DNA of 24,435 bases from NCBI GenBank assembly GCA_016840065.1, contig JAEOTB010000097.1, positions 1-24,435 on the forward strand. Reading direction: 5' to 3'. The stretch's first letter is position 1. Each line of letters starts with the position of its first letter. Below, one piece after another: positions 1 through 15,213 of this stretch. The notes under the pieces were generated by a model. The model had not been told where the DNA came from, did not search any database, and saw only the letters and a list, made by a program, of their open reading frames with translations. The DNA comes from Candidatus Hermodarchaeota archaeon (GTDB taxonomy: Archaea; Asgardarchaeota; Hermodarchaeia; Hermodarchaeales; Hermodarchaeaceae). The position numbers were made by a program, and so were the translations under genes.

Positions 1-39
1 GACAGGCAAAATGGTAAGTCCTCCAACACATGTGTCATT

Positions 40-153
40 TCAATTCCGTGCTCTGAGGATCTCAAAGCAGTCCTTCCAGGGGAATTCTCCGTTGATGGCA
101 GCTTCCAGGAAGCGGTCATTCATGTCCCTGCCTTCGGGCTTATCGTCGGTCAC
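40..153 (-). CDS. Possible 37-aa small ORF (MTDDKPEGRDMNDRFLEAAINGEFPWKDCFEILRARN), followed by a second ORF that runs off the left edge
   Basis: Translated by hand: GTG at 153, TGA at 42-40, next ATG at 38 (MTHVLEDLPFCL...). A TTTATA box lies on the minus strand at ~177-182. No recognisable homology. Confidence 0.3.
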   Translation of the reverse strand: MTDDKPEGRDMNDRFLEAAINGEFPWKDCFEILRARN

Positions 154-239
154 ACTCCTACCTTCGCCCCCCGCCCTATAAACCTCCTGACTCCTCGCCT
201 TGTCCAACCCCAGCGCCTTTAGGATAAGCTATGTCCTCG

Positions 240-292
240 TTCTAAGGACTGCTCTATCCCGCTTTAAGTGCGCTGGTGTTGGGGTGGCCACT
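240..292 (+). repeat. Bipartite cassette-boundary repeat, copy 1
   Basis: Core TTCTAAGGACTGCTCTATCCCG at 240-261, 13-nt linker, GGTGTTGGGGTGGCCACT at 275-292. Confidence 0.95.
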
Positions 293-365
293 TTTCCATA
301 ATCTTCTGTTGATTCAGAAGGATTCTTTAGTATCGGAGGGTTTGTAGCAATTTAGAGGTTATCTA

Positions 366-1244
366 GTGTTTTGGTGGCGACGGAAAAGTAAAGGGCAAAG
401 GGGTCAGAGCAGAATAGAAGAATTGGAGAGGGATATAGCTGCAATTAATGAACTCCTAAAACGATTGAAACAAAGGAGAAAGGATGGCGACATTTCTGAA
501 TCAACCTACCAGAGGTTATACGAACGGTATTCAAAGAGAAAAGCAGAAACTGAAACCCAGTTCGACGAAAGGCGTATCGTCACGAATGAGGTGCCTACTA
601 TAAGCCAGCCATGTTCCGTCTGTGGAATAGTAATACAGGAAGGGCAGGAAATGGTCTTTTGCCCAAAATGTGGCAAGCCCGCCCATTACGCTCATTTAAG
701 AGAATGGGTAACAGTCAAGGGTGTCTGTCCGGGTTGTAGATCACGTATACCACTAAAAAAGCTTCGACCTATACTGGCACCAAAACCAGCAGAGATAACA
801 TCTAGGCGAGAACCGCGTGTACCGCAGTATAGTGCTGAGGAGAGGGAGGAACTCCTCAAATTAGGAAAAATGAAAGAATCCCCTCACTCTGATGAGAAGG
901 ATTATTCTAGGTCACCTAAAGCGGATATGGTACTGGAAAAGCCGCAGCAGAGTCAAAAGGAGGTAAAGGCGTTTCGGAGGCGACGGCTTCAGCAGGTGCT
1001 GGAGCGGTATGGGCGACTCACCCTTACACGGATGTGTAAGTTGCTCCAGTTTCAGGATGTGGATCAATTAGAGGAATGGCTTCTCTCATTACCAAAAGGT
1101 ACTCCGCTCCGAATAGAGGGGGACGAAGTAGTGATTCGTAGTAGTACTACACCGGAAGAGCTTGACCAGCTAGTGGCAGAACTCACACGGTTAGAGGATA
1201 AACCTAAAACTCGTCGGACCCACAAAGTCGAAGACTCGTCATGA
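366..1244 (+). CDS. RING-finger-like zinc-binding protein with N-terminal coiled coil and C-terminal winged-helix-like domain
   Basis: CSVC-x11-CPKC-x4-HxxH-x3-W-x6-CPGC RING-like spacing. Heptad-rich N-terminus with DGDISESTYQRL. C-terminal segment LERYGRLTLTRMCKLLQF...LRIEGDEVVI. GAGGT SD before the GTG. Confidence 0.75.
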   Translation: MFWWRRKSKGQRGQSRIEELERDIAAINELLKRLKQRRKDGDISESTYQRLYERYSKRKAETETQFDERRIVTNEVPTISQPCSVCGIVIQEGQEMVFCPKCGKPAHYAHLREWVTVKGVCPGCRSRIPLKKLRPILAPKPAEITSRREPRVPQYSAEEREELLKLGKMKESPHSDEKDYSRSPKADMVLEKPQQSQKEVKAFRRRRLQQVLERYGRLTLTRMCKLLQFQDVDQLEEWLLSLPKGTPLRIEGDEVVIRSSTTPEELDQLVAELTRLEDKPKTRRTHKVEDSS

Positions 1245-1272
1245 ACTTCCACACTCCTCCTTTTTGTCCTCG

Positions 1273-1322
1273 TTCTAAGGACTGCTCTATCCCGCTTTCA
1301 GTGTGGTGTTGGGGTGACCACT
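1273..1322 (+). repeat. Bipartite cassette-boundary repeat, copy 2
   Basis: Core at 1273-1294, 10-nt linker, GGTGTTGGGGTGACCACT at 1305-1322. Confidence 0.95.
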
Positions 1323-1458
1323 CTTTTCTTCTCAAGTGGATGGTGCATTGAAGAACAAGAGAGATTCATCCGTACTCCCCATCCGCTGCGGTGGTTCCGC
1401 CACCACTTATTTAGGGAAGGTGAGATTATTTAGTGTACCTAATTTTAGGTGGGTAATT

Positions 1459-1914
1459 ATGGGAGTAGCAACAAAAGATACGGATTCAATTTTGAAGAAG
1501 TTAGTGAAGCGAATTCCAACGCTTATTGTGTCGTTTTACACAGGTATTCAAGTTTACTTGACACTAGGAGCCTTCCCAATTCCTATTCATTTGACCTATG
1601 CAAAGTGGGTGGTGTTCTATATAGCGTTGGTGGCGTCTCCTCTGGTAGTCTGGAAAATGAGGCACACTGAAGTACAGATTCATGAAAAGCAACGCACAAC
1701 CCTCACCGCTAAGGCGGCGATAAAAAGACTTGATAGTGACTTCAAAGAGAGGTACCCAGATGTCGGGATAAGGCAGTACATCCTTGTGATGGCGTCCTTT
1801 GTGATATGGGCTTTTGCTCTGGGAGGACCATTCTATGACATGTTTCCATTCCTTTACCCAGGATGGGCAGCGATAGCGGTGTACACCTGGACCCTTGTTA
1901 CGGCATTAATATAA
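1459..1914 (+). CDS. Hypothetical 4-TM membrane protein
   Basis: ORF track gives 1336..1914. The in-frame ATG at 1459 has an AGGTGG SD-like motif and is preferred. Four hydrophobic segments. The motifs KLVKRIPT..V..Y and Q...ASFVIWAFALGGPF recall a widespread uncharacterised bacterial membrane family. Confidence 0.7.
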   Translation: MGVATKDTDSILKKLVKRIPTLIVSFYTGIQVYLTLGAFPIPIHLTYAKWVVFYIALVASPLVVWKMRHTEVQIHEKQRTTLTAKAAIKRLDSDFKERYPDVGIRQYILVMASFVIWAFALGGPFYDMFPFLYPGWAAIAVYTWTLVTALI

Positions 1915-2017
1915 ATTGAAGCTGAAGAGACTGGTGCTAGGTTATCCAGAAGGATCATCAGTTAGACTAGTCCATTTTCGACGATTATCAAGTTGAACTC
2001 GAGATTCATCCACCTCG

Positions 2018-2071
2018 TTCTAAGGACTGCTCTATCCCGCTTTTGGTGGCGTAGGTGTTGGGGTGGCCACT
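2018..2071 (+). repeat. Bipartite cassette-boundary repeat, copy 3
   Basis: Core at 2018-2039, 14-nt linker, GGTGTTGGGGTGGCCACT at 2054-2071. Confidence 0.95.
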
Positions 2072-2137
2072 TCTTTTCTTGTTGTGTGGGTTCCTTTGTT
2101 TTTCCGTGGCTAGGGGATGGGGGTCAGACTGGGTTTT

Positions 2138-2659
2138 TTAGTATCTATATTTTGTTTTGAGATATTGATATAGTCCTAGGGAGATGAGGATGGCACCGAA
2201 ACCCATGACTATTACGCTGGGAAGTATTATGACTTTTCTGATGGTTTCGAACACGTCTCCAATGCCCCCTCCTTCGAGTAAGAGTGGGATGTTGAGGAGA
2301 TTCATTTGGATTCCCCACCAGAGATAGGGTATTATGCTAGCGGTTACGATGTAGGCGCCGGTGATTGCGATGATAAGCCAGACCCTATTGTATTGACTTG
2401 TTTTGGCTGAACTGGGTAGTAGTCCTGCTGTCAGAATCAGTGCTCCTATGAGCACAATCCCGGCTAGGAATTGGATAGAGGTTATTTTCGTCCAAATGAT
2501 CATTAATTGCCAGGTGCCGGTTACATCTATTAGGATCCAGGCGGTGAATACTACGCATCCAAGGAGTAGGAGAATGCCCCCGAGTGTAGTCATTCCGTAG
2601 TTGATTCGTAATTCTCCATCGCTCTTTGAAACCAGGATTTTCCTTGTTTGTTGAGTCAA
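2138..2659 (-). CDS. Hypothetical 4-TM membrane protein (paralog of 3190..4179 and 4459..4722)
   Basis: Four hydrophobic helices. Shared motifs D.TG.W..W.K..Q.L.G and YLWWGI...IPLL.E...ET. AGGAGGG SD before the TTG. Confidence 0.8.
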   Translation of the reverse strand: MTQQTRKILVSKSDGELRINYGMTTLGGILLLLGCVVFTAWILIDVTGTWQLMIIWTKITSIQFLAGIVLIGALILTAGLLPSSAKTSQYNRVWLIIAITGAYIVTASIIPYLWWGIQMNLLNIPLLLEGGGIGDVFETIRKVIILPSVIVMGFGAILISLGLYQYLKTKYRY

Positions 2660-2740
2660 TGTACACCCTCCTTCTGGAACTCAGTTTAGGTGTTGATTGA
2701 TTCGTGAGGATTGAGGTTGCTTAGAATATGGTTGCGCCCC

Positions 2741-2775
2741 TAAATAAAAGTTACTCTTTTTGACTCAAAAAGAGT
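2741..2775 (-). promoter_or_regulatory. TATA box plus palindromic operator candidate upstream of 2138..2659
   Basis: Minus-strand TTTTATTTA (2741-2749), preceded by the perfect inverted repeat ACTCTTTTTGA-C-TCAAAAAGAGT (2753-2775). Confidence 0.65.
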
Positions 2776-2787
2776 TAAATTGGTTTA

Positions 2788-2840
2788 TTCTAAGGACTGC
2801 TCTATCCCGCTTTGAGTCGCGTGGTACTGGGGTGTCCACT
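2788..2840 (+). repeat. Bipartite cassette-boundary repeat, copy 4
   Basis: Core at 2788-2809, 13-nt linker, GGTACTGGGGTGTCCACT at 2823-2840. Confidence 0.95.
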
Positions 2841-2872
2841 TTTCTTTGTTACCTAGAAATAGCTAATCGATG

Positions 2873-3088
2873 CTAGTCGTCTCGCTGGAGAATAGTTCGG
2901 TAACCACCTGTGAATCCATCAACATGGGCGAACCCCTGTATTTGGTAGCCGTGTTCGACTGCGATGTTGAGTGCCTCTGCTAGTTCTTGGTTAGTTCCTC
3001 CTTTGAGGATGATGATTCTGGGTGTGTGTTTCAGTGACACCTTGTCTTTGATGATGTCCCTTGGTATGTAGACTACTTCGGTTTCCAT
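2873..3088 (-). CDS. Small hypothetical alpha/beta protein (DUF1737/DUF4177-like pattern)
   Basis: Pattern II.L.....L.EALN.....GY.I.G.....Y..ILQR. GGAG SD upstream. Ends 32 bp from repeat copy 4. Confidence 0.55.
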   Translation of the reverse strand: METEVVYIPRDIIKDKVSLKHTPRIIILKGGTNQELAEALNIAVEHGYQIQGFAHVDGFTGGYRTILQRDD

Positions 3089-3189
3089 TCAAGACAGCTC
3101 CATCTTGTGTAGGGGACTACCGTATGAACCTTGGCTAATAGTGTTTTGTCCGGGTTCGCTATCTAGAAAGGAGGTTGGGGTTCTGGTGT

Positions 3190-4179
3190 TCAGACATCGT
3201 TTTGGAAATACCAGGAGGCTCCAAGGATGAGGAGGGCGAGACCAATGGTGAAGGTGAAGCCGTGAATGGTTATGAGGTCTCGGACGGTTTCCAATTCGTC
3301 GCTGTAGACGGGGAATTCTGCAAGGAGAGGGACTCTAGTGAGGTGAAAGTCGATGCCCCACCACAGGTAGTAACTACTCAGCGCGATTAAACAGATGCCT
3401 AAAATTGCGGCGGTGAGCCCATGCACCTTGCGGATGTTTGCGATATCTTTCGCTTCTAATTTGTAGAATGCAGGGATGAGAAGAATCGTCCCACCGAGGA
3501 TGACCGCTGACCAGAGAAATTCAACGAGTTTGTCAAATGGCGTGAACAACCAGAGGGCTGATGCATAGGAGTGCGTGGGATAGACCCAAGGGGTAAAGAA
3601 GAGGAAAATGGCGGCAAGGATGTGTAGGGCTCCCACAGCCAGCCATCCAGCTAGATGAATTCGATGAGGGCTAATCCATGTGAGGAGGGCGAGGATGATG
3701 GTGGGGATTTCGATGAGGATTGAGAGAAACAGATACTCTAGGGGGACGTGATGGCTGTATCCTGATGGTCCGCCGAGGATGTTGATGCTGTACCAGGTTA
3801 TGAAGTTCATCCCGAGGAGAACGGCAGCCGCGACACCTTGGATGAGGGCCCAGGCACGTAGGCTACTCGGTGGGTAATCGTATGGTTCTGAATCGACGGG
3901 TTTTGCTGGAGCGGTTCGTGCTGCGAGGTACAGGAGACTGGGACCTACCACGAGGAATATGGTGCCCGCTATTATGCTGCCTATAAGGATTTGGAGAACG
4001 AGCATTTTTATCCAGCCATCGGCGGATACCCACATGCCGGTAGTGTCGGTGGGGATCATGATAAAGAGGACGAATCCTGCTAGGAGTATGAAGAGGACGC
4101 CGAGGGGGATGAGGCTGATGGCTAAGCCTTTCTCAAACCTTCTTTCCAGTAGATGGGTTTGGCTTATTTGATACGCCAA
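3190..4179 (-). CDS. Hypothetical multi-pass (~8 TM) membrane protein of the local paralog family
   Basis: 329 aa and highly hydrophobic. N- and C-terminal modules align by eye with 2138..2659. AGGAGGG SD. Confidence 0.8.
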   Translation of the reverse strand: MAYQISQTHLLERRFEKGLAISLIPLGVLFILLAGFVLFIMIPTDTTGMWVSADGWIKMLVLQILIGSIIAGTIFLVVGPSLLYLAARTAPAKPVDSEPYDYPPSSLRAWALIQGVAAAVLLGMNFITWYSINILGGPSGYSHHVPLEYLFLSILIEIPTIILALLTWISPHRIHLAGWLAVGALHILAAIFLFFTPWVYPTHSYASALWLFTPFDKLVEFLWSAVILGGTILLIPAFYKLEAKDIANIRKVHGLTAAILGICLIALSSYYLWWGIDFHLTRVPLLAEFPVYSDELETVRDLITIHGFTFTIGLALLILGASWYFQNDV

Positions 4180-4253
4180 TGAAAACCCTCCTTGTTGATA
4201 CTCAATCGGTTGGTGTTATGAGGGGATTGGGTGTTTAATGTGGGAAGTGACGC

Positions 4254-4288
4254 TTAATAAAAGTTACTCTTTTTGAGTTAAAAAGGGT
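4254..4288 (-). promoter_or_regulatory. TATA box plus palindromic operator candidate upstream of 3190..4179
   Basis: Second copy of the 2741-2775 element: ACTCTTTTTGA-G-TTAAAAAGGGT (4266-4288) next to minus-strand TTTTATTAA. Confidence 0.6.
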
Positions 4289-4300
4289 TAAATTGGTTTG

Positions 4301-4351
4301 TTCTAAGGACTGCTCTATCCCGGTTCTAGTGGCTGGTGCTGGGGTGACACT
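4301..4351 (+). repeat. Bipartite cassette-boundary repeat, copy 5 (most diverged, rightmost)
   Basis: Core intact at 4301-4322, 12-nt linker, GGTGCTGGGGTGACACT at 4335-4351. No following T tract. Confidence 0.93.
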
Positions 4352-4458
4352 GATGCGATACGTACCGCTATCCCTCGGGTGGAACAGGGATAATCTATGA
4401 ACGAGGCTAAGATATTGTACTCCTCTACGCCTTTGTAAGCCAAGCATGTTTATGACGT

Positions 4459-4722
4459 TTAGGTTTTGTACCGAAGATACTGGAGTAGTCCAAGCGCGAG
4501 GAGGCTTGCGCCAATTAGTAGGACCAGACTTGATATTGACATGATGTCTGCGACGGTTTCTAGATTGTCTCCGTAAACGGGGAATTCTTCTAGGAGTGGG
4601 ATGTAGTGGAAGCGCATTTGGACTCCCCAACAGATGTAGGGAACACTAGCCATAATTAGGAAAGTGCCTGTGATTGCTAGGATAAGCCACCTAGTCGTGT
4701 TTTGATGTGATTCATCTTTCAT
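4459..4722 (-). CDS. Small 2-TM membrane protein, stand-alone C-terminal module of the local paralog family
   Basis: RWLILAITG...PYICWGVQM...IPLLEEFPVYGDNLETVADI matches the C-termini of 2138..2659 and 3190..4179. AGGAGGGG SD. Confidence 0.75.
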   Translation of the reverse strand: MKDESHQNTTRWLILAITGTFLIMASVPYICWGVQMRFHYIPLLEEFPVYGDNLETVADIMSISSLVLLIGASLLALGLLQYLRYKT

Positions 4723-4750
4723 TTACTGTACCCCTCCTGATTGATACCAT

Positions 4751-5392
4751 CTATGTTCTTAGTGTGAGCTGAAGTTCTAGCCTTGTTGCTCTCTTTTGGG
4801 CTTCAATCCGGATTTTCTGAAATGTGATCTGTTTTCCCTTCTGGCGAATGGTTCCTAGCAGTGTACCTAGGAGTGTGATCCGTTCAATTGCAATGGTTGA
4901 TATGAAGGCTATTCCACCCACACCGAAGGCTTGGAACAGGGTTAGTGATATGTTGTGAGCAAGCCAAGTTCCGACATAAGTAATAACGAGGAGGTATGTG
5001 ATTAACTCGGTGAAGGAGAAGAGGGTTGCCCAGCTTGTTTGGAGCTGGACCTTGTCCTTTTTGATGAGTTGGTTCGCCCAGCCGAGGAAAGCTAGGCTGT
5101 TTGGTGTGACGAGTGCTAGGAGGGTTCCTGCCAGGGCGCTGAGGAGCCCCAGTTGTATGTGAGCGGGTAGTGCCTGAGGATTGAGCTGAGCGAGTAGGAA
5201 ACCTTGACCTAGGAAGGGGAGAAAGGGGAGTATCGGGCTTGTGAGGAAATAGCAGATGATGGGGAAGAAATAGTCAATCATGAGCTCTGGCGGAAGAAAC
5301 ATGTGAGTTCTTGGAGTACTGGAGACTTCTGCGTCAATGCTGGGTTTTACTGGTGGTTCTCTTATTGTATCTGTTCCAGAGCTTTTCATCAT
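4751..5392 (-). CDS. Hypothetical membrane protein
   Basis: 213 aa, about 4 hydrophobic segments, co-oriented with its neighbours. Confidence 0.65.
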   Translation of the reverse strand: MMKSSGTDTIREPPVKPSIDAEVSSTPRTHMFLPPELMIDYFFPIICYFLTSPILPFLPFLGQGFLLAQLNPQALPAHIQLGLLSALAGTLLALVTPNSLAFLGWANQLIKKDKVQLQTSWATLFSFTELITYLLVITYVGTWLAHNISLTLFQAFGVGGIAFISTIAIERITLLGTLLGTIRQKGKQITFQKIRIEAQKRATRLELQLTLRT

Positions 5393-6959: not shown

Positions 6960-7129
6960 CCACTAGGTGGAGAACTAACAGCACGGAACATTGATGAGAA
7001 AAATACGGAGTATTGATGAGGAAAATCACGATCGGGCAAGGTGAAGTCCTCATCTGAAGGAAGAGCTGAAGCAAACCCATCCAGAGCTGGTTCCTTGGTT
7101 TTGCCTCTATTTGGTGCTGGTTTGTGGTT

Positions 7130-8674: not shown

Positions 8675-9781
8675 TTGAAGTTTGAAGGATCAGTGTTAGA
8701 AGATCGTCGCACATGGTTGCTAATCAAGGAGTTACTTAGCGGAGAGTTGGGTAAGCTTGAGCCAGTGCTTGATCCTTCGTCGCCCCTTGGTTTTCGTTAT
8801 CTAGCTGCTGAGGGGCTGTTGGAGGCTGGTCCCCGTGAGACGGTGGAGATCCTGCAGAGACTAGAAGCTGCTGGGTTCCTTGAGGCCACGCTTGTTGATC
8901 TTCTTCTACTGTGTTCATCCTGTCATTCTCCCCAGATTAACCCTAGGTTTAGGTGCCCGAATTGTAGTGGAGGTCGTCTTCTACGCCAGGAAACCATTGA
9001 ACATTTTACTTGCGGTTATGTCGGTCCAAGGAAAGAATTTGTCAAGAATACAGACCTACACTGCCCTAAATGCGATAAGAGCTTGAAGGGACAGCAGCAA
9101 GATTTTCTTCAGCGATCATCTGTTAAGTGCCTTGATTGTGAAGGGTTGCGGGCTGAGCCACGCTTGGTTTACAGTTGTTCTCGCTGCCAGGAAATCACAG
9201 AAATCGGACAAGCCCCAGAAGTACCCTTGTATAGTTTCAGTCTAAACCAAGAACACCGAGGAGATATTATCCACTACCTAGGATATCATCCCAAACCTGA
9301 GGCTGAGCGCCCTGGGCGTCGAAAACACAGGACTAGCTTGGATTCTACTGACCGACGTATTCTGAACCTTTTACAAGCTGATAGCAGACTATCGTTTCGT
9401 GCAGTTGCTCGGAGGCTGAAGATAGGTGATGCTACAGTGCGAGAGCGAGTGGCACGACTCCAGGATTGTGATATAATCCATTCGTTTACCACTCTGGTGA
9501 ACCCGGAAAAAGCCGGGATGGATGTCATCGGTCTAATTCATCTTGAGGTAAACCCGAAAGCCTTACCAGTTGTAGTGGATGAATTGAAAAGTATGGAGAA
9601 TGTCAAAGCTGTGATGGAGACCGGTGAGCGTCTGAATCTCATTCTATTTGTAACATTCCCCACACGTAAGGCATTGAATGCGTTCTTAGATAAGTACATC
9701 CGGGGCCGGGACACCATTAGGCTTGACGCAATCACTCTTGTGCTTTCAGTCCACAAACTGGACTTAATTATCCGATTATAA
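8675..9781 (+). CDS. TackOD1-like multi-zinc-ribbon domain fused to an Lrp/AsnC transcriptional regulator
   Basis: CSSC, CPNC, IEHFTCGYVG, CPKC, CLDC and CSRC motifs. C-terminal LDSTDRRILNLLQADSRLSFRAVARRL...TVRERVARL...IIHSFTTLVNP Lrp HTH followed by a RAM-like domain. Confidence 0.85.
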   Translation: MKFEGSVLEDRRTWLLIKELLSGELGKLEPVLDPSSPLGFRYLAAEGLLEAGPRETVEILQRLEAAGFLEATLVDLLLLCSSCHSPQINPRFRCPNCSGGRLLRQETIEHFTCGYVGPRKEFVKNTDLHCPKCDKSLKGQQQDFLQRSSVKCLDCEGLRAEPRLVYSCSRCQEITEIGQAPEVPLYSFSLNQEHRGDIIHYLGYHPKPEAERPGRRKHRTSLDSTDRRILNLLQADSRLSFRAVARRLKIGDATVRERVARLQDCDIIHSFTTLVNPEKAGMDVIGLIHLEVNPKALPVVVDELKSMENVKAVMETGERLNLILFVTFPTRKALNAFLDKYIRGRDTIRLDAITLVLSVHKLDLIIRL

Positions 9782-9874
9782 CAAGGAATTTCCCCTCTAG
9801 TGGTACGCAGCAACAACTTTTTTAACCGCTTTTTTCTGAGAATCTACTTGAAACAACTATCTGAGGAGAAAGGT

Positions 9875-10660
9875 GTGACGAATCTTCGTAAACTTCTGGA
9901 AGACGGTGCAATCGCCGAAGCCATCGGGAAAATATCAAAGGATGAGGAACTGCTGGAAGATCTGATTAGCCTCCTTGAGGACACAGATGAGGATATTCAG
10001 CGTTCTGCCTTTGAAGTGGTATCCCAGACTCAAAGCATACAAACCCTGTTAGAGGCGATACCTACACTTGTCGGTGGATTAGAAAGTGAAAATGAGGAGG
10101 TCTGCCGTTTTGCTGCTGAAGCCCTCTACTACTTTGGAACTGATGCTGCTGAAGCGACCGAGTCTCTATCCATTCTACTAAACCATGATGACGATGACAT
10201 TCGACGGGCTGCAGCTCGGACCCTAAGGTCGATTGGGCCAGGGGCTGTTTCCGCCCTGCAGCACCTTGTTGAAGCCTTAGGAGATAGCGATGAAACGGTG
10301 CGGGGGGAAGCTGCTCTGAGCATCGGGAACATTGGAAGCGTGGATCCAGAACCTGTACCATTCCTTGTGAAGGCTCTAACTGATGAGGAGGAGTTTGAAA
10401 TGGATGGGAAACCCTTGGAGGTACGTCACGCTGCACAGCAGGCACTGGTTAAACTGGGGAGCACGGCAGTTCCTGGATTACTCGATGCTCTCCGCGATGA
10501 CCGGGCTGAACTAAGACTTATTGCTGTGACAACCCTTGCACGGATTCCATCGTTATCCGATGTTGCCATGGAACTACTCCAAGCCACGATTAATGACCCT
10601 GACACAACCGTGAGCAGCGCTGCTCAAAAGGCCATCAAAGAGGTAAATGCCCAGAAATAA
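9875..10660 (+). CDS. HEAT-repeat (PBS lyase-like) protein
   Basis: Repeated L..L.D.D..VR..AA.AL..IG units. ORF track start is 9800; the in-frame GTG at 9875 follows a GAGGAG SD. Confidence 0.88.
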   Translation: MTNLRKLLEDGAIAEAIGKISKDEELLEDLISLLEDTDEDIQRSAFEVVSQTQSIQTLLEAIPTLVGGLESENEEVCRFAAEALYYFGTDAAEATESLSILLNHDDDDIRRAAARTLRSIGPGAVSALQHLVEALGDSDETVRGEAALSIGNIGSVDPEPVPFLVKALTDEEEFEMDGKPLEVRHAAQQALVKLGSTAVPGLLDALRDDRAELRLIAVTTLARIPSLSDVAMELLQATINDPDTTVSSAAQKAIKEVNAQK

Positions 10661-10783
10661 CCAATCGACCAACGTTCTTCTTGAGTAGTTCACTAGAACA
10701 GCTTGTTAGTGAATTAATAAGGAAGGAGTTGCCATACCTTGTGATTAGTGACTCGGGAAAGAGTTACTAGTGAGGTATTCTTC

Positions 10784-11737
10784 TTGAAACAGAAAATCTT
10801 GATTGTCTCGCTTCTGGTTTTCGTTTTTCTACTGTTTCCCCATGCTAGAGCTAGCGCACAGACACCGCCCTTTCCGCAAATAGGGCAAACCATGACTTAC
10901 AGTATCACCGGTGACGCCAACTGGGATGCTCCTCTAGACGTTACGCTAGGCTTCACCGCTACAGCAAGATATACAGTGACAGGAGTGTTTACCGGCGAAT
11001 ATACTGTGCTTCAAGAGGTCTCTGGTACACCCGTGTGGCCAACTACTGCGGGAACTGGTGGAATAAACTACTACGATGTAGGTGGTGGCGGTTACACCTC
11101 TGAACCGACTAATACTAGCTTTGCTTTCACTACGTCCGGTACCATTGCTCAAGACGACTCTGAAGTCTCAAGCCTGAGTGGTGATGAGTACTCGAGCGTT
11201 GAACTAAACTGGACCGTTGGCAGTGATACTGTTGGAGCCTACGTTGGATTGCACAGTTGGTTGTGGTTCATTGCCTTCTTCCCATTCCCCTATCCAGCCC
11301 TCTTCCTAACAGATGGTGAAAACTCGATATTCTATTGGAACACATCTCTAGCGCCATGGGATATAGTTGAAGACCCTGGTGCTTGGACGGTTGAAACTGT
11401 GTCAACTTCACTTGGAGTTCGTAACGCTTTTCGAAACACAACAAGCATCACTGGAACCCTTGCCACCACAAGTGGAACCACAGTATTAGACACATGGATT
11501 GACCTAGACTCACGAATCTTGCTCAAACTCACTGATACAACGACCATTGACAATGACGGTCTGTTTGATGTCGTTATGACAACAAATATCGACCTCGTCG
11601 CCTGTGACTTCTTTGGAATCATCGGCTCACTATTGTACACAAAGATAGCCGGCATCCCGCTCCTCTATCTCATCATCGCTGTTATCGTCATACTCGTAAT
11701 CGTACTACTCATTATCTGCATCGCAAGACGGAAGTGA
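10784..11737 (+). CDS. Secreted, C-terminally membrane-anchored surface glycoprotein, paralog 1 of 4
   Basis: Signal peptide (MKQKILIV...ASA), Thr/Ser/Asp-rich beta-type ectodomain with N-x-S/T sequons, C-terminal TM helix plus RRK. TTG at 10784 chosen by alignment with the paralogs. Confidence 0.85.
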   Translation: MKQKILIVSLLVFVFLLFPHARASAQTPPFPQIGQTMTYSITGDANWDAPLDVTLGFTATARYTVTGVFTGEYTVLQEVSGTPVWPTTAGTGGINYYDVGGGGYTSEPTNTSFAFTTSGTIAQDDSEVSSLSGDEYSSVELNWTVGSDTVGAYVGLHSWLWFIAFFPFPYPALFLTDGENSIFYWNTSLAPWDIVEDPGAWTVETVSTSLGVRNAFRNTTSITGTLATTSGTTVLDTWIDLDSRILLKLTDTTTIDNDGLFDVVMTTNIDLVACDFFGIIGSLLYTKIAGIPLLYLIIAVIVILVIVLLIICIARRK

Positions 11738-11755
11738 TTTCTGCATCCAATACGT

Positions 11756-11786
11756 GAGGACGCCCAGCGTCCTCTCCTCCTTTTTT
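11756..11786 (+). terminator. Hairpin plus T-tract terminator
   Basis: GAGGACG-cccag-CGTCCTC, then pyrimidines and T6. Confidence 0.75.
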
Positions 11787-11895
11787 CTTCTAGAAGCTTT
11801 GTTTGAGGGGCTAGTTGTTCAATTAATAAGGGGTCAGCAGGTATTATCTCTGGAATCCGTAACTCGAGAAGAGTTACTTCATGAGGGTTTCCTTA

Positions 11896-12834
11896 ATGAA
11901 TCGAAAAATACTGTTTGCTTCACTTTTTCTGTTGGTCTTTCTGACGATTCCCATCAACCAAGCTAGCGCAACGGGAGTTTTCCCCGCCGTAGGGCAAACC
12001 TTTGCCTACAGCATTACTGGTAGCGCCGACTGGGAAGCGCCCCTCGATGTCACCATTGGATTTGCCGCCACAGCAACCCTGTCAGTGACGGCAGTTGGGA
12101 CTACTGATTTTACTCTGCAACAAGCGGTTTCAGGGTCAGTCACCTGGCCCACTACAACTGGGACAGGAGAGATTGCTCTTTGGACATGGACCGCTTCTGA
12201 TCCAGATATCGCCCCAAGCAACACCGCCTTTAGCTTCACTACTACGGGTGATGTTGACCTCGACAATTCAGTTGTTTCAAGCCCCAGTGGCGACGAATAC
12301 GTAGTGGCCTGGTTGAACTGGACTTCAGGCTCAGACGAGATATTCGCCTGGATTAGTTACATAGCTGCAGGAATGATAGGTTCAGCCGCCTTATCATTAC
12401 CGCTTCCGCCCATCTTTCTAACTGAAGGTCTTCCAACGTTTTTCTACTGGAATACATCCTATTCACCTTGGACTGGGACACCTACCACGACTGACTGGAA
12501 CGTTGAATCTGTTGCGACCCCACTCGGTGTTCGCAATTCCTATCGGAACACGACAGCCGACTCCCAATCTGACAGCGGTAATAGTGCGTCGCTAACCTTG
12601 GACACTTGGATTGACTTTGAGACTAGCATTCTGCTTAAACAAACTGAAACAGTGGTCATTGACAACAGCGGAGTAATGGACTACACTATGACGTTAAATA
12701 TCGACCTCGTCTCCTGTAGCTTCTTTGCTGCTCCTATACCCATCGTCCTCATCATCATTGCTGTCATCGCCATCGTCATCATCATAATCGTCATATTCCT
12801 CCTCTACTGGTTCGTGCTACGAAAACGGAAGTAA
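11896..12834 (+). CDS. Surface glycoprotein paralog 2 of 4
   Basis: MNRKILF signal peptide, YSITG.ADW.APLDVTIGF.ATA family motif, TM helix plus RKRK. Confidence 0.85.
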   Translation: MNRKILFASLFLLVFLTIPINQASATGVFPAVGQTFAYSITGSADWEAPLDVTIGFAATATLSVTAVGTTDFTLQQAVSGSVTWPTTTGTGEIALWTWTASDPDIAPSNTAFSFTTTGDVDLDNSVVSSPSGDEYVVAWLNWTSGSDEIFAWISYIAAGMIGSAALSLPLPPIFLTEGLPTFFYWNTSYSPWTGTPTTTDWNVESVATPLGVRNSYRNTTADSQSDSGNSASLTLDTWIDFETSILLKQTETVVIDNSGVMDYTMTLNIDLVSCSFFAAPIPIVLIIIAVIAIVIIIIVIFLLYWFVLRKRK

Positions 12835-12855
12835 CAAGTAATACTCTGATGACAA

Positions 12856-12887
12856 GAGGACGCCAGACGTCCTCATCCTTCTTTTTT
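12856..12887 (+). terminator. Hairpin plus T-tract terminator
   Basis: GAGGACG-ccaga-CGTCCTC...TTTTTT. Confidence 0.75.
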
Positions 12888-13094
12888 CCGCTAGAAGACC
12901 CGTATTAAAGGCTAGTCATACACTTGACAGGGAGAGTATGGGATAAATGAGGAAGTTGGGCTCGAAGATTGATTTTTCGAGAGGCTTTTTAAGCGGTCAG
13001 CGTGAGAGACTGGATGTATTTTAATACGGTGGGGGTTGATAGTAGTGCTGAATTAGTAGCTCTAGAAGGAGTTACTAGTGAGGGACTTATTAAC

Positions 13095-14027
13095 ATGAAA
13101 AGGAAAATTCTCTTTGTTGCGCTTTTCGCTTTTGCCCTTACCCTGTTACCAGTTACGCAAGCACAAACAGCCTTTCCGGCGGTTGGTGTAAGCTTTGGCT
13201 ACAGCATCACAGGTGAGGCAGATTGGTCGGCGCCACTCGATGTCACTATCGGGTTCACAGCCACAGCCATCTATCAGGTAACAGCAGTGGGTACTAACGA
13301 TTTCGACGTGTCACAAAGTGTTTCAGGTAGCCCAATCTGGCCTACCTCTGCGGGATCTGGTGATGTCAACTTCTTTGATTGGAGCAGTAGCGATTTCGTT
13401 ACTGCTGCATCAAACACAAGCTTCAGCTTCACCTCGAATGGTGAAGTGTCGACGAATAACTCGATGATGAGCAGTGTGACTGGCAGCGACTATACATGTG
13501 TATGGCTGAACTGGACAGATGGTGTTGACGAAGTCATAGCCTATGTGGGTCTACAAAGTGCCCTATGGCTCTTTGTCTGGTTCCCAATACCGTTACCAAC
13601 CAGCTTCATGAGCAATGGCAATCCCTTCTACTTCTACTGGAATACCTCATATACCCCCTGGGATATGCCTGCCGCTGCTGCCTCTGGAGAATGGACTGCT
13701 GCACCGCTAGCAACTTTCGCGGGTGTCCGCAACGCCTACCACAACGAAACCGACTGGTCTGGTGCTGTAACTACCACTAGTGGAAGAACTATCCTTGACA
13801 CCTGGGTAGATGCAGATACAGGTCTTCTGCTCTTCCTCAACGACACCACGCTCATCGACAACGACGGAGCATTTGACTGCCGAATGAACACACTGATCAC
13901 AATGACCTCCTGTAGCATCTTTGCCGCCCCCATACCAATCGTACTCATCATCGCCGTAGTCGCTGTAATAATCATCATAATCGTCATATTCCTCCTCTAC
14001 TGGTTCGTGCTACGAAAACGGAAGTAA
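13095..14027 (+). CDS. Surface glycoprotein paralog 3 of 4
   Basis: In-frame ATG at 13095 (MKRKILFVALF) follows a GTGAGGG SD. Same architecture as the other paralogs. Confidence 0.85.
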   Translation: MKRKILFVALFAFALTLLPVTQAQTAFPAVGVSFGYSITGEADWSAPLDVTIGFTATAIYQVTAVGTNDFDVSQSVSGSPIWPTSAGSGDVNFFDWSSSDFVTAASNTSFSFTSNGEVSTNNSMMSSVTGSDYTCVWLNWTDGVDEVIAYVGLQSALWLFVWFPIPLPTSFMSNGNPFYFYWNTSYTPWDMPAAAASGEWTAAPLATFAGVRNAYHNETDWSGAVTTTSGRTILDTWVDADTGLLLFLNDTTLIDNDGAFDCRMNTLITMTSCSIFAAPIPIVLIIAVVAVIIIIIVIFLLYWFVLRKRK

Positions 14028-14048
14028 CAAGTAATACTCTGATGACAA

Positions 14049-14080
14049 GAGGACGCCAGACGTCCTCATCCTTCTTTTTT
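14049..14080 (+). terminator. Hairpin plus T-tract terminator
   Basis: Identical to 12856-12887. Confidence 0.75.
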
Positions 14081-14286
14081 CCACTAAAAGACCCGTATTA
14101 AAGGTTAGTCGTACACTTGGCAGGGAGAGTATGGGATATATGAGGAAGTTCTAGCTCGAAGAGGTTTTTTCGAGGAGCCTTTTAAGGGGTCAGCGTGTGA
14201 AACTGGATGTATTTTAATACGGCGGGGGCTGATAGTAGTGCTGAATTAGTAACTCTGCAAGAGTTACTAGTGAGGGACTCAAGAAT

Positions 14287-15213
14287 ATGAAACGGAAAAT
14301 TCTCTTTGTAGCACTTTTCGCATTTGCCCTAGCGATGTTGCCAGTCACACAGGCTCAGACAGCCTTCCCTGCGGTAGGTGTAAGTTTTGGTTATAGCATC
14401 ACAGGTGAAGCTGATTGGTCTGCGCCACTCGATGTCACCATCGGGTTCACAGCCACAGCCAACTACCAAGTAACAGCCGTCACGTCTAACGACTTCGATA
14501 TATCACAAAGTGTCTCAGGTAGCCCAATCTGGCCCACCTCTGCGGGATCCGGTGATGTCAACTACTTTGACTATAGTGCGTCAGACTACGTCACTGCTGC
14601 ATCAAACACTAGCTTCAGCTTCACGACCACAGGTGAAGTGGATACCGATGACGGGACCATGTCGTCCGTGACAGGAGCCGACTACACTGTTGTCTGGCTG
14701 AACTGGACCTCAGGGTCCGACGAAGTAATCTGCTTTATCGGTATGCACTCCTGGTTCTGGTTCTTTGCCTTCTTCCCAGTACCGTTCCCACCGAGCTTCA
14801 TGGCCAACGGTGAATACTTCTTTGGCTATTGGAATGCCTCGTATGAGCCCTGGACTGCTACACCCACCACAACGTATTGGACCACTGAACCGCTGGCTAC
14901 AGCCTTTGGTGTCCGCAACGCCTACCACAACGAAACTGATATCCTTGGTGACTTACCCCCAACTATGGGAAGGACAATCTTTGACATCTGGGTAGACGTT
15001 GATACTGGTCTTCTGCTCTTTCTCAACGACACCACGATCATCGACAACAACGGAGTATTTGACTGCCGAATGAACACACTGATTACGCTGACCTCTTGTA
15101 GCATCTTTGCCGCCCCCATACCAATCGTACTCATCATCGCCGTAGTCGCAGTTATCGTCATCATTCTCATCATCTTCCTGCTCTACTGGTTCGTGCTACG
15201 AAAACGGAAGTAA
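14287..15213 (+). CDS. Surface glycoprotein paralog 4 of 4
   Basis: N- and C-terminal regions near-identical to paralog 3; middle region divergent. Confidence 0.87.
   Translation: MKRKILFVALFAFALAMLPVTQAQTAFPAVGVSFGYSITGEADWSAPLDVTIGFTATANYQVTAVTSNDFDISQSVSGSPIWPTSAGSGDVNYFDYSASDYVTAASNTSFSFTTTGEVDTDDGTMSSVTGADYTVVWLNWTSGSDEVICFIGMHSWFWFFAFFPVPFPPSFMANGEYFFGYWNASYEPWTATPTTTYWTTEPLATAFGVRNAYHNETDILGDLPPTMGRTIFDIWVDVDTGLLLFLNDTTIIDNNGVFDCRMNTLITLTSCSIFAAPIPIVLIIAVVAVIVIILIIFLLYWFVLRKRK

Follow-up and report, generated by a model that had tools for sequence, protein, structure and literature searches.

An array of gene-bracketing direct repeats in a Hermodarchaeota genome, read as duplicated 3' ends of a predicted small RNA gene

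Integration within transfer RNA (tRNA) and transfer-messenger RNA (tmRNA) genes reportedly falls into sublocation classes, as set out by Williams in 2002. On the Islander principle, such an integration splits the gene, the incoming island restores it, and a displaced fragment of the gene marks the far end of the insert (PMC4383910). The tmRNA gene of Dehalococcoides, ssrA, carries tandem islands flanked by direct repeats of its 3' end (McMurdie et al., 2011, PMC3146451); these islands are inserted in the T-loop, and 15 of them are devoid of integration genes. Cis-mobilizable elements and the accretion of integrative elements in streptococci have been reviewed (PMC5704250), and clusters of attC sites lacking an integrase (CALINs) have been reported in Asgard archaea (Ghaly et al., 2022, PMC9668308). 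Aloposons (PMC8813620), being large tRNA-targeting elements, are not comparable with the locus considered here. That locus is an array of six direct repeats which begins just left of a 24,435-nt stretch of DNA from a Candidatus Hermodarchaeota archaeon (GenBank assembly GCA_016840065.1, contig JAEOTB010000097.1, positions 1 to 24,435 of the forward strand; hereafter the window) and continues into it, partitioning whole genes. On the basis of alignment and predicted structure, we conclude that the repeats derive by duplication from the 3' end of a small RNA (sRNA) gene not described before.

The repeat array and its predicted parent gene

The repeat is built around a 22-nt core, TTCTAAGGACTGCTCTATCCCG, which occurs exactly at window positions 240, 1273, 2018, 2788 and 4301, in every case on the plus strand and between genes. 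None of 100 shuffled versions of the window contained any match (0 expected by chance), and the window itself holds no further match when up to three mismatches are allowed. A first-pass annotation of the stretch had reported these five copies, their common orientation, spacings and intergenic placement, the absence of the core from the remaining 20 kb, and a bipartite build; exact searching bears out each of these, and the build resolves into the invariant 22 nt, a variable linker, a semi-conserved GGTGYTGGGGTGRCCAC and a T-rich run. The annotation was right about the 22-nt core but short on the unit, which measures ~50-89 nt (longest exact repeat <=34 nt), and on the copy number, as a sixth copy, r0, lies on the adjoining contig at G000:C112:10584. 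The final 127 nt of that contig are the first 127 nt of the window. The copies r0-r5 form one six-copy array with spacings of 1567, 1033, 745, 770 and 1513 bp, and an independent 1570-nt Logan unitig spans r0 to r1. Throughout the source metagenome-assembled genome (MAG; G000, 84% complete, 2.59 Mb in 131 contigs), the 22-mer is present six times, all within one 5.7-kb stretch. The whole-genome search which the annotation had proposed thus places every copy in this array, with none elsewhere and no inverted termini, and a scattered element of the repetitive extragenic palindromic (REP) or miniature inverted-repeat transposable element (MITE) kind was rejected.

The predicted parent gene lies just left of the window, on the plus strand of G000:C112 at ~10455-10643, as a unit of ~190 nt preceded by a sequence, CCTTTTAAAAGC, that resembles a transcription factor B recognition element (BRE) and TATA box and is conserved between G000 and a sister species of the same genus (G016). 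A block of ~105 nt from the r0 region is detected by BLAST at 85-91% identity in 13 of the 18 other genomes of the family; it is single-copy in 12 of these carriers and present twice in the remaining one, another sister genome (G018). In G016, ~115 nt up to and including the 22-mer are identical to the sequence around r0 of G000 and sit within syntenic flanks of 74-77% identity. The predicted RNA is closed by a helix in which GGCG..GGAUAGAG pairs with CUCUAUCC-CGC, and three of its pairs carry compensatory change, TAGAG/CTCTA being replaced by TGGGG/CCCCA in the sister genus (g2). Within the loop, ~45 nt form an invariant pyrimidine tract in which CCUCC motifs occur, there is a small hairpin GUCCU-N7-AGGAC with a 7-nt loop (GTCCT-CGTTCTA-AGGAC in the DNA), and the 3' end consists of a terminal hairpin followed by a U-run; the fold of the single sequence agrees with this aligned architecture. 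Within it, the 22-nt core corresponds to the 3' half (loop as well as stem) of the small hairpin together with the 3' strand of the closing helix, and the semi-conserved second part of the repeat corresponds to the terminator hairpin.

A covariance model (R1) run over 151 Asgard genomes confines the gene to this family, with, in addition, weaker full-length paralogs of the same architecture. The paralogs in G000 lie at C52:3983-4122, C11:9918-10060 and C38:~7011-7105, giving a CU-rich sRNA family of at least four members in that genome. The model misses partial tail copies and was not used for counting them; no tail copies of the paralogous sRNAs were found in G000. A search of Rfam 15 with E-values up to 10, covering window positions 1-5000 and C112 8500-12038, returned chance matches only and no credible one, and ARAGORN identifies the r0-carrying gene as neither a tRNA nor a tmRNA. 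The exposed pyrimidine loop is complementary to ribosome-binding sites of the GGAGG type, and, whatever the origin of the array, the sRNA can be put to the test as a candidate global regulator of translation. The definition of a lineage-specific CU-rich sRNA family with a covariation-supported fold is a solid by-product of the analysis.

Upstream of the gene, ~650 nt between a ferredoxin gene and the sRNA promoter (G000:C112 ~9770-10410; L006:690-1330) contain no convincing gene. This stretch is ~75% conserved with G016, its short open reading frames (ORFs) do not look protein-like, and it may represent either another non-coding transcript or a gene that has decayed.

Within the window, the five displaced copies are as follows.

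230..296, plus strand: r1, a copy of the sRNA 3' end; core at 240-261, then a variant of the terminator hairpin and a T-rich run
1246..1330, plus strand: r2, the longest copy; core at 1273-1294
2013..2080, plus strand: r3, the copy closest to r0; core at 2018-2039
2788..2852, plus strand: r4; homology begins exactly at the core (2788-2809, offset 0), and the left flank is the D promoter block
4300..4351, plus strand: r5, the last copy; core at 4301-4322, homology from offset 0, hairpin without a T-run, adjoining the fixX stub

These copies repeat the tail of the sRNA gene only. Homology to r0 starts at about -10 relative to the core in r1 (87.5% identity over 64 nt), at -27 in r2 (86.5% over 89 nt) and at -5 in r3 (94% over 68 nt), with a left limit common to all copies between the CG and the TTCTA of the 7-nt loop of the small hairpin, and it ends on the right after the terminator, at ~+60. 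A hairpin and T-rich run are kept in r0-r4, the outermost r5 alone being without the T-run; r5 also has one base changed in its outer helix strand (CCCGG), and is probably the original 3' end of the gene, displaced. The core is 100% identical in 6/6 copies, against a mean identity of 67% (53-86%) in the tail, and the orthologous sRNA genes of G000 and G016 show the same profile, with 22/22 positions matching in the core and 29/37 in the tail. In-place decay of duplicates would affect core and tail alike, so this contrast speaks against it. If pairing with the 5' strand preserves the core, and the terminator need only stay a hairpin, the contrast fits tails that come from working genes, and the alignment is consistent with import of the tails from functional sRNA genes of related lineages.

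The bracketed segments and the locus in relatives

The DNA between and beside the copies divides into the following features.

1..222, plus strand: window part of segment A (the r0-r1 segment, 1567 bp); the ORF in 1..222 is doubtful
366..1244, plus strand: B, a 292-aa protein with a RING-like zinc finger
1459..1914, plus strand: C, a 151-aa membrane protein, strain-specific, with one distant family match at 38% identity
2138..2659, minus strand: D, a 173-aa membrane protein of the c16 family, paralogous to E2 and F
2740..2787, no strand assigned: D promoter block, 48 nt, palindrome-bearing, joined to r4 via GGTTTA
2873..3088, minus strand: E1, a 71-aa protein, strain-specific at this locus
3190..4179, minus strand: E2, a 329-aa membrane protein of the c16 family
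4253..4300, no strand assigned: E2 promoter block, joined to r5 via GGTTTG and also found 5' of the G016 ortholog of E2
4352..4410, plus strand: fixX stub, a 59-nt 3' remnant of a fixX-type ferredoxin gene, 84% identical to G016 and with a 1-nt deletion
4459..4722, minus strand: F, an 87-aa gene of the c16 family, 28 nt downstream of a conserved 213-aa gene

The rest of segment A, on C112, carries two small membrane or zinc-ribbon ORFs. Segment B is compact, comprising the ORF, ~70 nt upstream of it and the repeat. The first-pass annotation had described a varied cargo headed by a RING protein, which is about right as a description, but the match of B to Prok-RING_1 (E 1e-5) falls below the Pfam cut-off and the other products match no Pfam family. 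No full-length relative of B was found in a collection of 5.8 billion proteins, leaving it an orphan, and none of the 18 sister genomes has an ortholog of A2, B, C or E1; distant paralogs of E1 occur on contig C108 and in G017.

The right-hand part of the array is of a different character. D, E2 and F are paralogs within a membrane-protein family (c16) that is native to the locus in sister species. The gene order in G016 is the single-copy sRNA, a leucine-rich repeat (LRR) gene, fixC, fixX, the E2 ortholog and the 213-aa gene, with none of segments A-C; in G000, r5 is followed by the fixX stub, F and then the 213-aa gene, and no ortholog of fixC or fixX is left elsewhere in the MAG. The E2 ortholog of G016, at 66% amino-acid identity, adjoins the 213-aa gene with no repeat beside it, and a protein search with E2 recovers only this ortholog, in three assemblies with the same gene order. 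In G018, a 94-aa gene of the c16 family, which F resembles, lies directly 3' of the sRNA, and r3 plus D of G000 align with r0 plus this gene in one contiguous alignment (68% over 382 nt). The extra tail copy of G018 is on another small contig.

The two promoter blocks (2740-2787 and 4253-4300) are 88% identical (89% in the comparison with 4253-4333) though the paralogs behind them have diverged; the 48-nt block is probably a conserved regulator-binding site of the c16 family. As r4 and r5 share one junction with it, that junction would have arisen once and then been copied, either through a cassette related to the first or through duplication in place; in G016 no repeat follows the block. Three arrangements are seen in contigs of a co-occurring relative: a repeat followed by a D-like gene, a D-like gene adjoining an E2-like gene, and the E2 promoter beside the 213-aa gene.

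Gene content just downstream of the sRNA differs in nearly every genome of the family. A scan of the genome collection with the 22-mer gave matches in two sister MAGs only, and the 11 genomes of genus g2 have no extra tail copies near the sRNA. The first-pass annotation had named arrays in related genomes as a mark of support, and that support is lacking: nothing comparable is present in the sister genomes, so that 1/19 family genomes has the array.

How the array may have arisen

The layout matches that of integration at the 3' ends of tRNA and tmRNA genes, and our preferred reading is therefore that small circular DNAs entered the sRNA gene one after another by Campbell-type insertion, a reading that in our judgement stands at roughly an even chance. 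Each incoming DNA would bring its own tail, running from within the small hairpin loop through the 3' strand of the closing helix to the terminator hairpin and its T-run. A crossover in the shared core would then join the resident 5' part to the incoming tail in a working sRNA, pushing the previous tail downstream, and repetition of this event would stack r1-r5 with the inserted DNA between them. The crossover would be due either to a site-specific enzyme encoded on an unbinned element and acting in trans, or to homologous recombination between the 22-34 bases that are identical, and the small segments may be integrase-less passengers, like the cis-mobilizable elements of tandem islands. The mechanism is inferred from the anatomy, and mobility is a prediction. 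What is observed is an intact RNA gene at one side of the array (r0), direct repeats of one end of that gene (r1-r5), and absence of the insert where the target is single, namely in G016 and in 11 g2 genomes, with the qualification that D, E2 and F have relatives at the locus. Taken together, the intact gene, the displaced tails, the limit within the loop and the strain-specific DNA allow a known pattern to explain the anatomy without a new platform.

Several observations weigh against serial insertion. None of the segments carries an integrase beside an attachment (att) site (Pfam, PHROGs) or a mobile-element hallmark gene (PHROGs), and Pfam and PHROGs searches of the joined 36 kb, which took in 10.5 kb on the upstream side and 20 kb on the downstream side of the array, found no tyrosine, serine or IS110 recombinase and no mobile-element gene. 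The source MAG as a whole lacks PF00589, PF00239, PF16795 and PF01548, though it is 84% complete and mobile elements bin poorly. Virus contigs in IMG/VR match neither the core, nor its sister-genus version, nor the conserved sRNA loop. Circles or repeat-to-repeat deletions were not seen in Logan contigs of three DNA runs, where unitigs break at the repeat. The array occurs in one genome only; its segments, at 0.75-1.6 kb, are far below known integrative elements and cassette-like in size; and their GC content (0.44-0.50) does not differ from that of the genome (0.47). Moreover, in co-occurring relatives the D-like and E2-like genes are adjacent without r4, and the E2 promoter stands beside the 213-aa gene without r5. 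D, E2 and F being native genes, local rearrangement may account for the right half of the array at least, which may represent a copied unit of tail, c16 gene and promoter instead of independent imports.

In run X1, the Logan unitig that spans r1 and the first part of B (window 243-671) has a depth of 4.8, compared with 9-12 for neighbours of the same strain, a weak hint that segment B is absent from some cells. A XerA-type tyrosine recombinase (~314 aa, E ~1e-50) is detected in 13/15 genomes of the sister genus and in 0/4 MAGs of this genus, reflecting either incompleteness or a divergent or lost Xer system. Two candidates were set aside: an integrase-like ORF of 281 aa in G018, on a contig (C359) of 2.7 kb, is not accompanied by a copy of the site, and an exact metagenomic match of 25 nt to the r5 version of the core (L014:5645-5669, L015:1313-1337) falls in codons 6-13 of an unrelated glycosyltransferase-like gene, with no other similarity, and is read as chance.

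The foremost alternative, which we regard as unlikely as an account of the whole array, is that local rearrangement alone was at work, with segmental duplication, unequal crossing-over or illegitimate recombination beside the sRNA gene and no mobile cassette. The right half accommodates it well: r4 and r5 share their promoter-block junction and flank the paralogs D, E2 and F, and the end-to-end alignment of r3 plus D with its G018 counterpart points to a unit of tail and c16 gene that could be duplicated. The genome-like composition of the segments, the missing recombinase and the reshuffling of the locus between all sister genomes lean the same way. Duplication nevertheless fails for r0-r3, since A, B and C are paralogous neither to each other nor to genes of the locus; in-place decay is contradicted by the disparity between core and tail; and random breakpoints would not give copies that share the terminator end and in several cases start <=10 nt from one loop.

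Rather less probable is an integron-like platform, in which the sRNA tail would be the primary site, the copies would be cassette sites, and single-gene cassettes would be moved by an unrecognised recombinase or by short-homology recombination. Asgard archaea of this genus would then have a cassette-capture system in which cassettes dock at the tail of a housekeeping sRNA gene, each of them (~1 kb) bringing a functional replacement tail as its recombination site, so that excision and reinsertion pile up new genes at a single locus. The segments are compact, B being an example; most consist of one gene without known relatives, as integron cassettes do; the copies are direct and all have the identical core; and integrase-less attC clusters are the commonest form of archaeal integron, enriched in Asgard MAGs (PMC9668308). 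Other features weigh against this reading. On neither strand of window positions 1-5000 is there an attC box pair (RYYYAAC/GTTRRRY, 40-130 nt apart), and the left-edge sequence GTTCTAA has a C where the attC core requires a purine. DNA folds of the five units, on both strands, have z-scores from -1.7 to +0.8 and offer only a 5-bp hairpin and a weak terminator stem. No IntI-type recombinase (PF00589) was found in G000, 84% complete as it is, or among the proteins of the joined 36 kb. Native genes are among the cargo, which occupies both strands, the array is restricted to a single family genome with one extra copy in G018, and the role of the core in the sRNA helix accounts for its conservation. 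As for clustered regularly interspaced short palindromic repeats (CRISPR), these have repeats of 25-50 nt and similar short spacers, whereas here the spacings are 745-1567 bp and contain whole genes. The first-pass annotation was therefore correct that the repeat is neither attC nor CRISPR. Its further proposal of an undescribed, independent recombination site serving an integron-like platform gives way to the 3' end of a conserved sRNA gene, and of the conserved recombinases it had named as support if nearby, the tyrosine, serine and IS110 kinds are found neither linked to the array nor in the MAG. The more general claim of recombination behind the bracketed genes survives in part: several segments are strain-specific and a recombinational origin is their best reading, but D, E2 and F are native.

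It is improbable, and markedly so, that the copies were retained for a function of their own, as terminators of the plus-strand genes A, B and C or as decoys or targets for pairing with the 5' side of the sRNA helix. Each of r1, r2 and r3 does follow a plus-strand gene by 20-100 nt with a hairpin and T-rich run, and the core pairs without a mismatch with the 5' strand of the sRNA; termination or pairing may add to the retention of the copies at A-C. Against this, the minus-strand genes next to r4 and r5 have their promoters downstream of these copies, which would fall outside the transcripts, a terminator needs no invariant 22-nt core, the hairpins are weak and fold no better than shuffled sequence, and the origin of the copies is left unexplained. 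Scarcely credible is an assembly artefact that strung together strain variants of the region downstream of the sRNA via the repeat: the sample does contain at least one close relative with a different arrangement and the array does cross a contig break, but with an exact repeat of <=34 nt against an overlap of 127 nt each junction is crossed by k-mers with unique flanks, and the joins r0-A-r1, r1-B, r3-D and r5-fixX stub-F recur in independent Logan unitigs with no mismatch.

Should serial insertion prove correct, foreign DNA in Asgard archaea would have docking sites in sRNA genes beyond those for tRNA and tmRNA, gene-sized and integrase-less pieces could be stacked at such sites, and a simple route of gene acquisition would be at hand in the lineage closest to eukaryotes. 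A practical lesson is that an intact parent gene should be sought at the end of an array before its repeat is named a new recombination site.

Elsewhere in the window, at 10748-15213, four tandem paralogous genes of ~320 aa recur with a period of ~1.19 kb. They share a leader, a terminator hairpin (GAGGACGCC-N-GCGTCCTC) and an acidic C-terminal tail, and this family is separate from, and unrelated to, the repeat studied here.

Comparison with known systems

The resemblance to CALINs lies in small, mostly single-gene segments of no known function between direct copies of a site, with no integrase adjacent. Unlike theirs, the present site has neither R''/R' boxes nor an imperfect-palindrome fold, attI and intI are lacking, the site sequence is the tail of a gene whose conservation is explained by RNA structure, and the cargo lies on both strands with its own promoters. 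Streptococcal accretion offers a parallel in att-flanked segments that lack recombination genes, lie in tandem at one chromosomal site and could be moved by an integrase in trans; there, however, they arise beside a complete integrase-encoding element, and here there is none and any mobility is a prediction.

As in islands at tRNA and tmRNA genes, an intact gene stands at one end and a displaced fragment at the other, the element would supply a replacement 3' end, and the crossover would fall in a loop of 7 nt enclosed by an inverted repeat of 5 bp, as in an anticodon or T stem-loop. Unlike those islands, this locus has a target that is neither tRNA nor tmRNA (ARAGORN, Rfam), no adjacent integrase, and segments of cassette-like size.

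The parallel with ssrA of Dehalococcoides extends to several features at once. In both cases direct repeats of the 3' end of a single-copy small RNA gene lie behind that gene and are separated by strain-specific DNA, the point of insertion falls within the loop of a hairpin, the region is highly variable (in Dehalococcoides the most variable of the genome), and many segments lack integration genes, those of Dehalococcoides being read as cis-mobilizable passengers. The Dehalococcoides islands differ in measuring several kb and in that about half of them carry a serine recombinase module (dsiA/dsiB), against 0.75-1.6 kb and no recombinase found here; their repeat is 20 bp, against 50-89 nt including the terminator; and the present array is known from one genome only, its target being an archaeal sRNA that is CU-rich and lineage-specific. 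It is best classed as a new variant of integration and accretion targeted to a small RNA gene, with unusually small, integrase-less segments, in an Asgard archaeon.

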